DNA from: an uncultured Gammaproteobacteria bacterium | Lineage (GTDB): Bacteria; Patescibacteriota; Patescibacteriia; Patescibacteriales; UBA12465 | Length of the DNA: 50,863 nucleotides | Reading direction: 5' to 3' | Assembly (NCBI GenBank): GCA_964435515.1 | Contig: CAYSZD010000006.1 | Location: forward strand, 1-50,863 | Shown here: piece by piece, positions 16,876 through 41,956 of the stretch | How positions within the stretch are numbered: position 1 is the first letter of the stretch | How the letters are laid out: every line of letters starts with the position of its first letter | Notes under the pieces: model-generated | What the model was told of the DNA's origin: nothing | Database searches by the model: none | The model's input: the letters and a program-made list of their open reading frames with translations, nothing else | Translations under genes and position numbers: made by a program

Positions 16876-16951
16876 GCGCCTATAGCTCAGGGGTTAGAGC
16901 ACCGCTCTTATAAAGCGGGGGTCGATGGTTCAATTCCATCTAGGCGCACCA
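16876..16951 (+). tRNA. tRNA-Ile(UAU)
   Basis: Acceptor stem GCGCCTA/TAGGCGC, discriminator A, encoded CCA; anticodon arm CCGCT-CTTATAA-AGCGG gives anticodon TAT. Confidence 0.93.
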
Positions 16952-36550: not shown

Positions 36551-37588
36551 ATGTATATATTAGGATTAGAAAGTAGTTGTGATGAAAGCGCTGCCGCTGT
36601 TTTAGAAGCTAAAGGCACTAAAACTAAAATTCTTAGCAATGTCATTGCATCTCAAATAGATATTCACGCTCAATATGGAGGCGTTGTTCCAGAAGTCGCT
36701 GCTCGCGAACATGTTTTGCATATATTGCCTACAATAGATGAAGCTCTGAGAAAGGCTAAAATAGGTCCTAAGGATTTAAAAGCCATTGCGGTTACTCAAG
36801 GACCAGGACTTGTTAGTTCTCTATTAGCTGCCACTGAAAATGCCAAGGCGCTATCACTTATTTGGAAAAAAGAAATTATTCCCGTTCATCATATTGTTGG
36901 TCATATCTATGCTTCTTTTATTGATACCAATCCGAACCCAGCCTTTCCTCTAATAGCCTTGGTAATCTCTGGCGGTCATAGTAATCTTATCTACATGTCC
37001 GATCATTATAATTTTAAAGTAATTGGCGAAACCAGGGACGATGCTGCCGGAGAGGCCTATGACAAAGCAGCTAAAATGATGGGCCTATCATATCCTGGTG
37101 GACCTATTATCGCTAAATATGCAGAAGAGTTTAGACGAAGCGCTAAAGAATGTAAAATCGAATTACCTAGACCAATGTTAAATTCGAATAATTTAGATTT
37201 TTCTTTCTCTGGACTAAAGACCGCCCTCCTATACAAACTACAAAAAGATAAACAATGGAAAAATAGGGTTCCGGAATATTGCTTTGCCCTAGAATCTGCC
37301 ATTATTGACACTTTAGTACATAAAAGCCTAAAAGCTATAGCTAAATATCAACCTAAAAGCTTTATTTTAGCGGGAGGAGTATCAGCTAATATTGCTCTTA
37401 GAAACACTTTATCAACTAAAATAAAAGAAAAATCACCAAAAACTAATATTTTCTTAGCAAATCTAGCTTATACCACTGACAATGCCGCCATGATTGCAGC
37501 GGCAGGCTATTTTAAATATTATAAGCAAAAAAATAAGGCTTTTGTAGATTATTCCACATTAAATGTAAAATGCGATTTAAAATTTTAA
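36551..37588 (+). CDS. tsaD: tRNA N6-threonylcarbamoyladenosine transferase TsaD
   Basis: ILGLESSCDESAAA, GGVVPEVAAREH, HHIVGH, ISGGHS, DDAAGEAYDK, FSFSGLKT, TDNAAMIA. Confidence 0.98.
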   Translation: MYILGLESSCDESAAAVLEAKGTKTKILSNVIASQIDIHAQYGGVVPEVAAREHVLHILPTIDEALRKAKIGPKDLKAIAVTQGPGLVSSLLAATENAKALSLIWKKEIIPVHHIVGHIYASFIDTNPNPAFPLIALVISGGHSNLIYMSDHYNFKVIGETRDDAAGEAYDKAAKMMGLSYPGGPIIAKYAEEFRRSAKECKIELPRPMLNSNNLDFSFSGLKTALLYKLQKDKQWKNRVPEYCFALESAIIDTLVHKSLKAIAKYQPKSFILAGGVSANIALRNTLSTKIKEKSPKTNIFLANLAYTTDNAAMIAAAGYFKYYKQKNKAFVDYSTLNVKCDLKF

Positions 37589-37633: not shown

Positions 37634-37707
37634 GGCTCGGTGGTGAAGTGGTCTAACACTGCAGTTTGCAAAACTGTCATTCGTGGGTTCGAATCCCACT
37701 CGAGCCT
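37634..37707 (+). tRNA. tRNA-Cys(GCA)
   Basis: Acceptor stem GGCTCGG/TCGAGCC, discriminator U, anticodon arm GCAGT-TTGCAAA-ACTGT. Confidence 0.96.
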
Positions 37708-37748
37708 CAAACTCCTTTAAGTTTTACTTAAAGGTTTTTTAATAAAGT

Positions 37749-37900
37749 TGTGGATAACTTGTGATTTCTGTGTAAAACAAATAAACTTTAGTCTACAAAT
37801 ATCTAGACTTAAGTCTAAAAACTCTTTAATTTTTTGCCTAAAATTAAATAAAATAATTAATATTACCACAAAATAAGCATTAGGGCTTGCGTTGTCCACA
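37749..37900. promoter_or_regulatory. Cluster of DnaA-box-like 9-mers
   Basis: TGTGGATAA (37749), TGTGTAAAA (37769) and TTGTCCACA (37892, 1 mismatch to TTWTNCACA). Confidence 0.45.
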
Positions 37901-37915
37901 AATATGTGCTATAAT
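37887..37915 (+). promoter_or_regulatory. Strong sigma70-type promoter for the 37921-38258 transcript
   Basis: TTGCGT-17 nt-TATAAT with TG extended -10. Confidence 0.8.
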
Positions 37916-37920
37916 ACTTA

Positions 37921-38258
37921 TAGTTAGATAAAGTTCTTTTTACTAAATCTTGAAAATATCATCAGCGCTAGCATGATGAGAGAAGGACTAATAGTCCATG
38001 GAGTAGGATAAACAGAGCTAATCAAAATTATTAAATAATATATTTAATAAAATTAGCAATAGAAATCATAAAGAAAATCTTACAAAGAATTGGTGAAAAG
38101 AAAACAGCTTAAGCTAGCAAGCTCCAAATATAATCCTGGCCGAAAAAATTGATAAAAATCAATGAAACAGTATGCTAGGATTGGAGCTCAGACGCGGCCT
38201 ATTATTTATAATTACTTTATACTATATAAAGAGGGGCCCGTTCTGGGCTCCTTTTTTA
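37921..38258 (+). ncRNA. Candidate large structured ncRNA of unknown class (RNase-P-like motifs, non-canonical)
   Basis: Own promoter and terminator, no credible ORF, several complementary helices with A-rich linkers. Confidence 0.6.
38231..38258 (+). terminator. Intrinsic terminator of the candidate ncRNA
   Basis: GGGGCCC-GTTCT-GGGCTCC followed by TTTTTT. Confidence 0.85.
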
Positions 38259-38345
38259 TTAGTAAAAACAAGACTAAACTTGAATTATTATTGCTTTATT
38301 TCTCTATTACTGCTAAAAATTAATTATTATAAATACAACATATAT

Positions 38346-39410
38346 ATGTCTTTATCCATAGCAATTGTAGGACTACCTAATGTAGGCAAATCTAGCCTAT
38401 TTAATATCCTCACTAAAAAAAGCGTTGAAGCTGCTAATTATCCTTTTTGTACCATTGATCCAAATGTCGGGATAGTAAAAGTGCCAGATGAGCGACTATA
38501 CAAACTCGCCGAAGTGTCTAAACCAGCTAAAATTATAGCCACTAGTATTGAATTTGTAGACATAGCGGGATTAGTGGCCGGTGCGAGCAAGGGTGAAGGA
38601 CTTGGTAATCAATTTTTAGCTCATATTAGAGAATGTGACGCTATTTGTGAGGTTATCCGTGATTTTAAAGATGAAAACATTATTCATGTTAATGGACAAA
38701 TTGATCCAGAATCTGACAAAGAAACAATAAACATCGAATTAATATTAGCTGATTTAGCCAGTGTTAGTAAAAGATTAGAAAAAACAAAAAAAGAAAGCCG
38801 AAGCGGAAACAAAGAATTAGTTTTTCAAGCATCAATATTAGAAAAAATAAATCAACATTTGGAGGCTGGCTTAGCTTTAAGGTCTCTGTCTTTTACTGAA
38901 GAAGAATTACCATACGTTAATAGTTTAAATTTACTAACTATAAAGCCCATTATCTATCTCTTAAATACTGATAACTTAGATACAATACCAAATCTAAATA
39001 ATTTAGACGGAGAAATAATTGCAGTTAATGTAAAAATAGAAGCAGAAATTAATTCTCTTCCAGAAGAAGAGCAGGCAGAATATATAAAAGAATTAGGCTT
39101 AGAACAAAGTGGTTTAGATAAATTAATTGCTGCCTCCTATAAATTATTAGGTCTGGACACTTTCTTTACTACTGGCACCGACGAAACAAGAGCTTGGACT
39201 GTTAAACATGGAGCTAAAGCACCTGAAGCAGCTGGAGTAATTCATACTGATTTTATTAAAGGTTTTATTAGGGCCGAGGTTATTAGCTGTGAACAACTAA
39301 TTGCTATTGGCAATGAAACAAAGGCTCGCGAACAAGGTTTAATCAGAACTGAAGGAAAAGAATATATTATAAAAGATGGAGATGTCTGTCATTTCTTAGT
39401 AAATCGCTAA
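38346..39410 (+). CDS. ychF: Ribosome-binding ATPase YchF (start set at MSLSIAIVG rather than at 38172)
   Basis: GLPNVGKS, ANYPFCTIDPN, DIAGLV.GASKGEGLGNQFL, FFTTG.DETRAW, APEAAGVIHTDF, C-terminal TGS domain. Confidence 0.97.
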   Translation: MSLSIAIVGLPNVGKSSLFNILTKKSVEAANYPFCTIDPNVGIVKVPDERLYKLAEVSKPAKIIATSIEFVDIAGLVAGASKGEGLGNQFLAHIRECDAICEVIRDFKDENIIHVNGQIDPESDKETINIELILADLASVSKRLEKTKKESRSGNKELVFQASILEKINQHLEAGLALRSLSFTEEELPYVNSLNLLTIKPIIYLLNTDNLDTIPNLNNLDGEIIAVNVKIEAEINSLPEEEQAEYIKELGLEQSGLDKLIAASYKLLGLDTFFTTGTDETRAWTVKHGAKAPEAAGVIHTDFIKGFIRAEVISCEQLIAIGNETKAREQGLIRTEGKEYIIKDGDVCHFLVNR

Positions 39411-39455
39411 ATTAAATTTAAATAAGCAAAAAGCACTTTTAAGTGCTTTTTTATA

Positions 39456-40001
39456 TTAACGAGATAAAGGAATTCTTGATGAATGAGAAGGGCTGGATGA
39501 AACAGGCGATGATTTTGTATTCTTTCTATCACTAGTTACTTGACTGATAGATGTAGAAGTTTCTCTGTTACCAACTGATACCCTTGATTTAGGAGAAGAT
39601 ACATCACTTAAACCTGAGCCTCTATTAAATTGTTGACTGGCAAAACCTGGAGTAACTATTTCACCATCGTCTGCCCTAATAATACGTACATGAGATTTTT
39701 CTTTCTTTATTTCTCCGCCACTAGCCAATTTATCTACAATTTTTTGCACCGTTTTAAGCTCAGTTGATTTTAAATCGCCACTAGCTTTAATCCTGTGGAG
39801 CATGGTATTTTGCTGAGATTTACTAAAAGTACCACGACGAATAGAATCTTGCGAGACCTTTACGGCCTTCATAATTGCTTCCTGATTTGCAGATAATTTA
39901 GCAATATCTCCACCTTGCTTACTCAAATATTTAAACTTACTGTTAAAAGCATTAGCGCTAAATTTTTTGCCTCCTCCTGGCAGGCTATTAATTCCGCTCA
40001 T
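39456..40001 (-). CDS. Hypothetical basic protein with Ser-rich disordered tail
   Basis: 181-aa ORF 9 nt downstream of the methyltransferase; bidirectional terminator at 39428-39452. Confidence 0.75.
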   Translation of the reverse strand: MSGINSLPGGGKKFSANAFNSKFKYLSKQGGDIAKLSANQEAIMKAVKVSQDSIRRGTFSKSQQNTMLHRIKASGDLKSTELKTVQKIVDKLASGGEIKKEKSHVRIIRADDGEIVTPGFASQQFNRGSGLSDVSSPKSRVSVGNRETSTSISQVTSDRKNTKSSPVSSSPSHSSRIPLSR

Positions 40002-40010
40002 AAAATATAG

Positions 40011-41189
40011 TTATTTTTCTAAAATTATTAATTCGCGCCATACTTTTTGACCCGCTCTATTATATAATAAAGTATTACGTAAACTTTTTTTAAGCCAAGG
40101 TAAGTCCTTAAATTTTGATGGCAATGGATCTATGAATTTCCACTTATCTAGATTTACTTGTAAAAATTCTCTACCAAAAAATACTGGCCAAACCATCACT
40201 ACTCTGCCACCGTCTTTCATAATTTGATAAAAAGCCTCTAAGGATTTAGTATATAAAACTTCTAATTCAGTAATTACTGATGAAATTGAATTTAAATCTC
40301 GTTGTGGGCCTAAATAAGGCTCAGTAACTATGGTTCCAACCGTATTTGGCTTAATAAATTGAGACAGACGAGTAGCGTTTTTAATATGAAATTTAGCTTT
40401 TATCTCTAAAGAATATAAAGTTCTTAACCATTCAGCATTCACTCGACTATCATTAATAGCTTTTTCCGATAAATCGGTGCCCATCAAATTAGTATAGCCC
40501 ATCAACATTGCTTCATTAATAACTGTACCAGAGCCGCAAAAAGGATCAAGAATTAAATCTTCCTGTGTATTAGGAGAGGCTATATTTAACATCATCTGGG
40601 CTAATTTAGGCGGAAGCATGCCTGAATGATCATCTCTAACTGGACGACCATAATCACGACGAGAGAGGTCTTTATAATCTTGAATCGCTAATGTAAGAGC
40701 AATATAAAGATTATTATCGTCTACATAAAAAATAAGCTCAGCTCCTTTGCTTAATAATTTATTCTGCCCCACAACCACACTAGATAATTCTTTTTCTCTA
40801 CTTGTAACTAATCTTGATGAAATATTAGCCGCTTTTAACTCTTTTTTAATCTGTAAACCTATTTTCTCCGCTTGAAAACGACCACCCACTCCTTGATCAG
40901 ACAGACCAAATACTAATTTTCCTTCACCTCTTTTAGCTTTAGCTATTAAAAGTTTTGAACAAATTTTAGCTATTTCAGTAAAAGGTGCATTAACTATCAT
41001 TTTTTCTTCTAATACAGCTATTTTAAGAGTACCTCCTAATCTTTTAATTAATTTATCTGCATTTATTTCACTATTTTGCTTCATTAAAATTCTCTCATTT
41101 TGCCAAAATAAGTTATTTTCACCTAAAACTGAGCTAATTTCTGCCACTGACCAGGCAGGATGTGTACCTAAAATAAAAATATAATCCAT
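40011..41189 (-). CDS. THUMP-like + SAM-dependent RNA amino-methyltransferase (Trm11/TrmG10-like)
   Basis: GMLPPKLAQMMLN, LDPFCGSGT (motif I), GTDLS, IVTEPYLGP (motif IV-like); N-terminal extension. Confidence 0.8.
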   Translation of the reverse strand: MDYIFILGTHPAWSVAEISSVLGENNLFWQNERILMKQNSEINADKLIKRLGGTLKIAVLEEKMIVNAPFTEIAKICSKLLIAKAKRGEGKLVFGLSDQGVGGRFQAEKIGLQIKKELKAANISSRLVTSREKELSSVVVGQNKLLSKGAELIFYVDDNNLYIALTLAIQDYKDLSRRDYGRPVRDDHSGMLPPKLAQMMLNIASPNTQEDLILDPFCGSGTVINEAMLMGYTNLMGTDLSEKAINDSRVNAEWLRTLYSLEIKAKFHIKNATRLSQFIKPNTVGTIVTEPYLGPQRDLNSISSVITELEVLYTKSLEAFYQIMKDGGRVVMVWPVFFGREFLQVNLDKWKFIDPLPSKFKDLPWLKKSLRNTLLYNRAGQKVWRELIILEK

Positions 41190-41261
41190 ATGCTATTACT
41201 ATGCCCTAAGTCTTGCTTTTTTTCAAGCATTATGATAACTTAAATACATAAATTAATATTT

Positions 41262-41380
41262 ATCATATCTTTCCCACGTTTTGAGCTAGTCTCAAAATAA
41301 TTCCGCTATTTATCAGACGGAATTAAAGGTATTCTTAGAAAACCCTGATTCTCTAGAATACTTGGGTTTTTATTTAATAA
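41262..41380 (+). promoter_or_regulatory. Structured 5' leader of the rpsF-ssb-rpsR operon
   Basis: Hairpins TTTTGAG/CTCAAAA, AATTCCG/CGGAATT and AAACCC/GGGTTT(T), the last with alternative pairing GTATTCT/AGAATAC. Confidence 0.4.
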
Positions 41381-41440
41381 TGAGTGTTAGAAAAATGTTA
41401 AATAATAATAACATCCTTTTTAAGCTCAATATGTTACACT

Positions 41441-41956
41441 ATGTCAAAGACAAAAAAAAGTGGCCCAGGTCGCTATGAAATGCTTTTTATCATCGCTAAC
41501 AACTACACAGAAGATGAAGCTAAACAAATTATCAGTAAAACCGAAGCTTTATTAGAAGAAAATAATGCTACTATCGTGTACCGAGAATATTGGGGTAAGA
41601 AAAAACTTGCTTATCCTATTGGACAAAATCACTATGGCTACTATAGCTTATGTGAATTCGAAACCGAAAGACAGCATGTATTAGAATTAAATCGTCTTCT
41701 TAGCCTTTCTAAAGAAATTTTACGTCATCAAATTGTAAGTGTTCCTGCATTGAGCAATGAAGAGAGAGAAAAGATGAAACAAAAACAAATAGAAGCTTCT
41801 GCAAAAGATGGCAAAGAAGAAAAAGGAGCTAAAGAAAAAATTGAAAAAGTAAGTGATAAAATTGAAAAAATTGAGAAAAAGGATGAGAAAAAAACTAACC
41901 TTAAAGATTTAGATGAAAAATTAGAAGGCATTATTAGTGCCAAAGATCTTATATAA
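41441..41956 (+). CDS. rpsF: 30S ribosomal protein S6 with long charged C-terminal extension
   Basis: RYEMLFII, WGKKKLAYPI, GYY, EILRH; precedes ssb-rpsR. Confidence 0.96.
   Translation: MSKTKKSGPGRYEMLFIIANNYTEDEAKQIISKTEALLEENNATIVYREYWGKKKLAYPIGQNHYGYYSLCEFETERQHVLELNRLLSLSKEILRHQIVSVPALSNEEREKMKQKQIEASAKDGKEEKGAKEKIEKVSDKIEKIEKKDEKKTNLKDLDEKLEGIISAKDLI

Follow-up and report, generated by a model that had tools for sequence, protein, structure and literature searches.

The 50,863-nucleotide (nt) stretch analysed here (contig CAYSZD010000006.1 of assembly GCA_964435515.1, forward strand; hereafter the window) has a G+C content of about 32%, is placed by its GTDB lineage in the Patescibacteriota, and carries between the genes for tRNA-Cys(GCA) and YchF a candidate structured RNA, which an earlier note had proposed to be either an extremely divergent RNase P RNA or a new class of large non-coding RNA (ncRNA). 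Reading along the locus, tsaD (36551-37588) is followed by tRNA-Cys(GCA) on the plus strand (37634-37708; tRNAs were called with ARAGORN), a terminator-like hairpin belonging to it (37714-37734, plus strand), the RNA (predicted primary transcript 37922-38257, plus strand), ychF (38346-39410, plus strand), a methyltransferase gene on the opposite strand and rpsF. The product of ychF, a ribosome-associated ATPase, was recognized through its Pfam domains MMR_HSR1 and YchF-GTPase_C, and ychF is the invariable downstream neighbour of the RNA, tRNA-Cys being the usual upstream one.

The RNA is preceded by the strong plus-strand promoter that had been proposed at 37887-37915, consisting of a -35 element TTGCGT (37887-37892), a 17-bp spacer and an extended -10 element TGcTATAAT (37907-37915), and the arrangement, a TGCTATAAT box with a TTGNNN -35 element, is conserved in all of the aligned homologues. 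A consensus scanner overlooked this promoter, the -35 element of which matches at three of six positions only, and the corresponding terminator scanner did not flag the GC hairpin with U6 at 38233-38257; negatives from these scanners are here not to be read as absence. The transcript start was placed about 7 nt past the -10 element and the end at the U-tract, and the family profile matches 37931-38257 in nhmmer (E = 5e-55). At the 3' end, the intrinsic terminator H7 (38183-38257, plus strand) is formed by GGAGCUCAGACG.CGGCC (38183-38199) pairing with GGCC.CG.UCUGGGCUCC (38235-38251), followed by U6 (38252-38257), and its lower stem is 100% paired, with three compensatory pairs, in all 20 aligned sequences. 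The GC-rich terminator hairpin reported earlier (GGGGCCC-GUUCU-GGGCUCC-U6) is present and covaries, its stem (38183-38199/38235-38251) being longer than first given. No coding signal was detected in the RNA region: the YchF homologues align from residue 1 at the ATG at 38346, and the open reading frame (ORF) start at 38172 is a mere upstream extension of ychF, which bears out the previous statement that no credible ORF is present. Compared with dinucleotide shuffles, folding yielded z = -6.7 for the plus strand and z = -3.0 for the minus strand, and the strand is fixed by conserved G-U pairs, which would be C-A on the opposite strand, such as the alignment pair 326-400 (U-G in 20 of 20).

In the window's clade the RNA forms a separate transcription unit, because ychF has its own conserved promoter past the RNA terminator. 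A putative promoter (TTGCTT, 17 bp, TGcTAAAAA) is located at 38291-38319 on the plus strand, and the same arrangement was found at the homologue loci (labelled L001 to L132) L001, L002, L082, L083, L100, L102 and L106, the pattern of this sublineage being TTGCTT-17-TGnTAAAnA. Other sublineages (L005, L081, L086, L090, L091 and L094) have TTGGCA-17-TATACT between the RNA terminator and ychF, and extended -10 boxes occupy the RNA-ychF spacer of L130 (TGCTATAGT) and L110 (TGCTATTAT). A Shine-Dalgarno sequence was not found in any ychF start region examined. As judged from these signals, the window RNA should be an independent transcript from its own promoter to its own terminator, without a conserved ORF, and it is probably abundant.

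The collection of intergenic homologues that the earlier note had called for indeed recovered covarying relatives. Searches with nhmmer found the element 5' of ychF in five genome loci, and metagenome contigs, scanned for exact matches to a degenerate pattern of the 3' domain, yielded 27 loci, 26 of which are true homologues. A pattern scan of viral contigs returned nothing. L092, a chance match of the pattern within a coding region, was excluded, as was L097, where the RNA is present and the contig breaks into unrelated sequence within an AU-rich repeat of the terminator loop, probably an assembly chimera. Further loci were gained via relatives of YchF, bringing the total to about 24 distinct full-length sequences, along with nine distinct sequences of a minimal form of about 170 nt from a sister clade in which YchF is approximately 68-75% identical. 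The nearest YchF relatives are encoded by Patescibacteria metagenome-assembled genomes labelled Parcubacteria or Falkowbacteria, including the complete 977-kb Falkowbacteria genome CP066698.1, in which the RNA is present as L108, and the host range among the loci collected is that of Falkowbacteria-like Patescibacteria. No family of Rfam 15, even at E<=10, matches the RNA in the window, in five full-length homologue loci or in two minimal loci, and full-text literature searches on RNase P RNA or structured RNAs of Patescibacteria, and on a ychF leader or motif, produced nothing relevant. Judged against Rfam, this RNA family is thus absent from the database and represents a new family of gene-linked structured ncRNA or leader. 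Of the two options first proposed, the new large ncRNA class is supported, by the transcription unit, by covarying helices, by a set of distinct homologues numbering more than 30 and by the lack of an Rfam match, and the divergent RNase P RNA is not supported.

At all loci whose sequence extends far enough to tell, the RNA lies immediately 5' of a same-strand ychF. This adjacency is kept through rearrangement, at L130/131, which are without tRNA-Cys and tsaD, at L124/125, which have lost tsaD, and at L119, where an ORF is inserted. On the 3' side, the order ychF, methyltransferase (opposite strand), rpsF, ssb, rpsR and efp is conserved (window 38346-41956; L108 and L110-L113), and this order resembles the yyaF-rpsF-ssbA-rpsR region near the Bacillus subtilis origin.

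The full-length form folds into a junction of several helices, which the long-range H1 closes and which H6 and finally H7 follow; all elements are on the plus strand. The 5' strand of H1 (AAGUUCUUUUUACUAAAUCUU, 37931-37951) and its 3' strand (AAGA.UUGGUGAAAAGA..AGCUU, 38085-38110, which includes GGUGAAA) were identified by the minimum-free-energy (MFE) fold and the partner energies described below. Hairpin H2 (37959-37979) consists of UCAUCA/UGAUGA with the loop GCGCUAGCA, and shows compensatory changes in all six stem pairs. Within this loop, GCUAGC (37967-37972) pairs with GCUAGC at 38113-38118, forming an H-type pseudoknot in which the six nt located 2-4 nt past the H1 3' strand engage the H2 loop, an A-rich strand coming next. 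The pseudoknot is paired in 100% of cells, and four of its six pairs are changed on both sides, with the variants GCUAGC/GCUAGC, GCUAAC/GUUAGC, GCUGAC/GUCAGC, ACUGAC/GUCAGU and GUUGAC/GUCAAC, and GCUUAC/GUAAGC at L110. Hairpin H3 (GGACU-AAU-AGUCC, 37985-37997) is a variable, dispensable arm, with 12 of 20 homologues showing a gap at this place and the others a different sequence. H4 (GUAGGAU/AUCUUAC, 38003-38009 with 38077-38083) encloses the AU-rich arm H5, with which it makes up a large expansion of the junction; the H5 stem in the MFE fold is GCUAAU/AUUAGC (38017-38022 with 38052-38057). The long hairpin H6 (38120-38188) has the base AGCUCCA/UGGAGCU, the middle AAUCCUGGC/GCUAGGAUU and the tip UUGAU/AUCAA, and the last six bases of H6 are shared with H7 as its first six.

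Covariation was assessed on an alignment of 20 full-length sequences (MAFFT), with cells counted on the cleanly aligned H2, pseudoknot, inner H6 and H7. There, 97.7% of cells are paired, as opposed to 87.6% in shuffles, with 18 double-change pairs and 33-51% in slid controls. RNAalifold on the plain MAFFT alignment gave H2, inner H6 and H7 only; H1, H4 and the H6 base needed a test on duplex energy, by which helices misaligned by MAFFT were judged, comparing each sequence's own strands with strands swapped between sequences. Own strands pair more favourably throughout (own versus swapped, in kcal/mol): -16.6 versus -12.3 for H1, -6.4 versus -2.8 for H2, -9.9 versus -6.6 for the pseudoknot, -8.8 versus -6.0 for H4, -18.3 versus -13.5 for H6 and -28.3 versus -22.8 for H7. 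On permutation of partners, the observed mean was reached in 0 of 5000 cases for each of the six. As measured by this covariation, the region encodes a real structured RNA with covarying main helices. Several helices were already drawn in the earlier note: H2, H5 and the three segments of H6 are real and covary, as does H3, which is present in one subgroup only. What had been missed was H1, the GCUAGC pseudoknot, H4 and the fact that H6 and the terminator overlap at the base of H6.

The minimal form (L008 5808-5995, L114, L116, L117, L119, L121, L124, L129 and L132) is arranged as tRNA-Cys, 3-10 nt, an element of about 170 nt and ychF, and is composed of H1, H2 with the pseudoknot, a small hairpin, H6 and a terminator. 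The latter (AAGAGAGGC-loop-GCCUCUUUUGCC) is conserved, with a canonical A-tract, GC stem and U-tract, and ends up 12-35 nt 5' of the ychF ATG in most loci and about 140 nt in L132. Pairing extends to 90.3% of cells in an alignment of eight minimal sequences (shuffles, 82.5%; slid controls, 35-50%), and 22 pairs show double changes. Unguided, RNAalifold returned H1, H2, a small third hairpin, H6 and the terminator, and separate MFE folds of the nine sequences gave the same three-way junction, H6 and terminator. A covariance model built from the eight recovers L132, which was outside the training set, at 86 bits; a 24-bit match at L008:2537-2669 turned out to be an ordinary terminator only and was rejected. 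Invariant bases are found mainly in the terminator, in both strands of the pseudoknot and in the A-run that follows H2, and the junction strands are poorly conserved.

Both forms share the position before ychF, usually after tRNA-Cys, and the order of elements, namely H1 5' strand, H2, third arm, H1 3' strand, 2-5 nt, pseudoknot strand, A-rich linker, H6 and terminator. Common to both are furthermore the pseudoknot motif, GCUNAC with GUNAGC, and the A-run after H2. Resting on position, architecture and pseudoknot motif, homology of the two forms is probable, not proven, and the minimal arrangement may be ancestral.

Considering fold and locus together, it is in our judgement an evenly poised proposition that the window encodes a stable structured ncRNA of about 335 nt, from a family outside Rfam, that is functionally tied to YchF or to translation. 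The RNA would act as a free molecule, most probably protein-binding or regulatory, with a function coupled to YchF or to translation, and the persistent adjacency to ychF points to such a tie. The poor conservation of the junction in the minimal form is more in keeping with a protein-binding or structural RNA than with a metabolite aptamer. The H7 hairpin would either coexist dynamically with the H6 base or be trimmed off, upon which H6 closes.

Several observations weigh against this reading. The relatives L004/L126, L006 and L009 have no copy of the RNA at ychF. The sequence profiles of the full-length and minimal forms do not cross-detect, and the minimal-form covariance model gives 10-15-bit local matches only on full-length RNAs, several of them on the H2 region and the correct strand. 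Moreover, no promoter is present between RNA terminator and ychF start in the minimal clade; transcription of ychF must therefore start there at the tRNA-Cys promoter and run through the element, as it would with a leader, and tRNA-Cys, RNA and ychF are, going by this spacing, one transcription unit. Lastly, in the full-length form the strand that closes the H6 base on its 3' side also opens the terminator stem, over 6 nt, and all three strands co-vary, a picture typical of an antiterminator/terminator switch.

These last points bring in the main rival, that the RNA is a cis-acting leader of ychF, a transcription attenuator of riboswitch-like type, which we consider possible, if on the unlikely side. 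Junction and pseudoknot would sense an effector, a protein such as YchF itself or a nucleotide, whereby the H6 base is stabilised, GGAGCU is kept from the terminator and transcription reads through into ychF. The position directly 5' of ychF on the same strand, even after rearrangements, suits such a role, as does the minimal clade, with its terminator so close to the ATG in most loci and no promoter between. The three strands of the overlap also co-vary, AGCUCCA/UGGAGCU/GGGCUCC in some sequences versus AGCUUCA/UGAGGCU/GGGCCUC in others, and in L130 a change of C-G to U-A in the H6 base goes together with GGGUCUC in the terminator. This three-strand covariation is, however, equally well explained by a co-transcriptional terminator and an H6 that closes in a 3'-trimmed mature RNA. 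Furthermore, the near-consensus promoters between terminator and ychF in the window's clade would bypass the switch, the terminator is very strong (about -28 kcal/mol) relative to a competitor of 4-7 bp, and pairing at the H6 base is weaker in L002, L083 and L130. The H6 and terminator of the minimal clade are separate from each other, and neither a conserved antiterminator nor an alternative helix emerged when the alignment, the consensus fold and the single-sequence folds were inspected. The junction nucleotides are poorly conserved, unlike those of metabolite aptamers, and the element occurs in one gene context only. A cis-attenuator role may nonetheless be ancestral.

Known systems offer partial parallels to both possibilities. 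Attenuating leaders and riboswitches such as SAM-IV, ydaO and T-box likewise lie on the strand of their gene and have a junction closed by a long-range helix, a pseudoknot to a strand 3' of that helix and an intrinsic terminator, with which a helix competes in our full-length clade; they differ in that no family match was obtained here, the junction is variable, ychF has a separate promoter in the window's clade, the minimal clade has no antiterminator and a single gene context is seen. As a free RNA, the element can be compared with raiA-motif RNA, OLE RNA and Y RNA, orphan ncRNAs that have a promoter and a terminator of their own and are each linked to one protein gene (raiA, oapA and, for bacterial Y RNA, rsr): these too are discrete, highly structured, pseudoknotted RNAs beside one protein gene and probably protein-associated, whereas the present RNA shows no sequence or structure match to them in Rfam scans, occurs in Patescibacteria and has ychF as partner gene. 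The minimal clade, with a tRNA, a structured spacer and the gene of a translation-associated nucleoside triphosphatase in one unit, additionally recalls the thrU-tyrU-glyT-thrT-tufB operon of E. coli; the spacer is here, unlike there, a conserved pseudoknotted 170-nt RNA with a terminator, and in the window's clade an independent gene.

Could the element instead be a housekeeping RNA in disguise (6S, signal recognition particle (SRP)/4.5S, transfer-messenger RNA (tmRNA) or Y RNA), or, as a variant of this idea, a transcript tied to replication initiation? Co-transcription with a tRNA in the minimal clade is in line with the former, being frequent among stable RNAs. We nevertheless regard this group of explanations as improbable, as these families gave no Rfam match, ARAGORN found no tmRNA, and the hallmarks are missing, that is the 5'/3' closing stem with central bubble of 6S, the GNRA-capped domain IV motif of SRP and the tRNA-like end or tag ORF of tmRNA. 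A tmRNA frame tried from the conserved GCUAAU gives tags of variable length without a conserved C-terminus, and GCUAAU pairs with AUUAGC; SRP, 6S and T-box were likewise rejected, with no Rfam matches and no hallmark motifs by inspection.

The replication variant draws on a pair of DnaA boxes at a fixed distance 5' of the promoter in at least 20 of 22 full-length loci. A perfect box, TGTGGATAA, is located at 37749-37757 in the window, where it is the sole perfect DnaA box, and at -155 to -168 from the RNA -10 element in 20 of the 22 loci, usually followed 20 bp on by TGTGTATAA. In subgroup 1 a third DnaA-like box (TTGTCCACA or TTATCCACA) sits in the promoter spacer, the window copy being TTGTCCACA at 37892-37900; the corresponding box positions in L001-L110 are about -158, -138 and -15 from the -10 element. 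The minimal clade, however, is without these boxes, the whole spacer that bears them being absent. The boxes could mediate DnaA control of the RNA promoter or belong to a region resembling an origin; over the window, cumulative GC skew reaches its minimum at approximately 37-42 kb, which is confounded by gene orientation.

The same upstream region contains a conserved inverted repeat, TTTAGTCYAG..N..CTAGACTTAA, present in the window at 37790-37820 (AGTCTACAAATATCTAGACTTAAGTCTAAAA) and also in L001, L002, L003, L005, L007, L108, L110 and L130, and an extra TTAAGTCCACA copy abuts the -35 element in subgroup 2. It has the appearance of a recurring site for protein binding, be it a degenerate DnaA box or the site of another regulator. 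Elsewhere in the window, at 16876-16951, ARAGORN called a tRNA-Ile with the anticodon UAU, which is uncommon; AUA is usually read in bacteria by a lysidine-modified CAU tRNA.

We finally return to RNase P. The size of about 335 nt, the strong promoter and the terminator fit such an RNA, there is no canonical rnpB within the 50-kb window, and the window copy alone has AGUCC, AACAGAG, GGUGAAA, AGCAAG..CCAAAU and CAGA..CGGCCUAUU in RNase-P-like order, as well as a candidate P4-like helix, AAUAGUCC/GGCCUAUU, of -7.2 kcal/mol. However, the RNase P models of Rfam gave no match, either at the gathering threshold or at the relaxed E<=10, when 661 nt of the window, the five full-length loci and the two minimal loci were scanned, and the colinear landmarks to which the earlier note had drawn attention are not conserved in the homologues. 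The long-range AAUAGUCC/GGCCUAUU pairing is confined to the window, the best equivalents in 19 homologues ranging from 0 to -6.4 kcal/mol with one only below -4.6, and a P4 5' strand with the conserved GAGGAAAGUCC of conserved region (CR) I was not found. Of the landmarks, AGUCC belongs to H3, which 12 of the 20 aligned homologues lack, and CAGA..CGGC.UA is the 5' strand of H7 rather than the invariant unpaired ACAGAA..GGCUUA (CR-IV/V, J2/4 and the P4 3' strand): its CAGA changes to CAAA, CAU and CACA together with UCUG to UUUG, AUG and UGUG on the opposite terminator strand, the alignment column pair 329-397 being GC in eight, UA in eight and CG in one sequence. Similarly, GGUGAAAAG, the GGUGAAA region, forms the 3' strand of H1 and changes in step with the 5' strand, for instance CUUUUUAC/GUGAAAAG versus CUCUUUAC/GUAAGAG. 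The ends do not pair, as the P1-like UAUAGU..AUAAAGU/ACUUUAU..ACUAUA of the window is absent in L001 and L002 and the 3' end is a self-contained terminator hairpin; the topology differs, with a pseudoknot using a hairpin loop; and the 170-nt minimal homologues are without any RNase P core. Compared with bacterial RNase P RNA (RNaseP_bact_a/b), the likeness is thus one of length, of a stable-RNA-type transcription unit and of a few short sequence coincidences in the window copy, whereas P4, the CR-I to CR-V nucleotides, the terminal P1 pairing and the S-domain are all missing and the homologues lose every landmark. An extremely divergent, minimised RNase P RNA is in our view scarcely credible, and with this false lead removed, annotations of these genomes should not list an aberrant RNase P RNA at this locus.

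YchF/Ola1 is a universally conserved ATPase that is poorly understood and whose role is debated. To our knowledge, very few ncRNAs have been described from the tiny genomes of Patescibacteria (the Candidate Phyla Radiation). A pseudoknotted RNA of 170-340 nt that is kept beside ychF in many species implies a function worth its space there. Tentatively, and with more doubt than belief, we suggest that the RNA serves YchF/Ola1 as a dedicated partner or regulator, either bound by YchF via the TGS/coiled-coil cleft, as a new small ribonucleoprotein, or acting as an effector-sensing leader that sets YchF levels. An RNA tied to YchF, as partner or as regulator, is a concrete and testable lead and, if true, it would be the first RNA handle on the role of YchF in minimal-genome cells.

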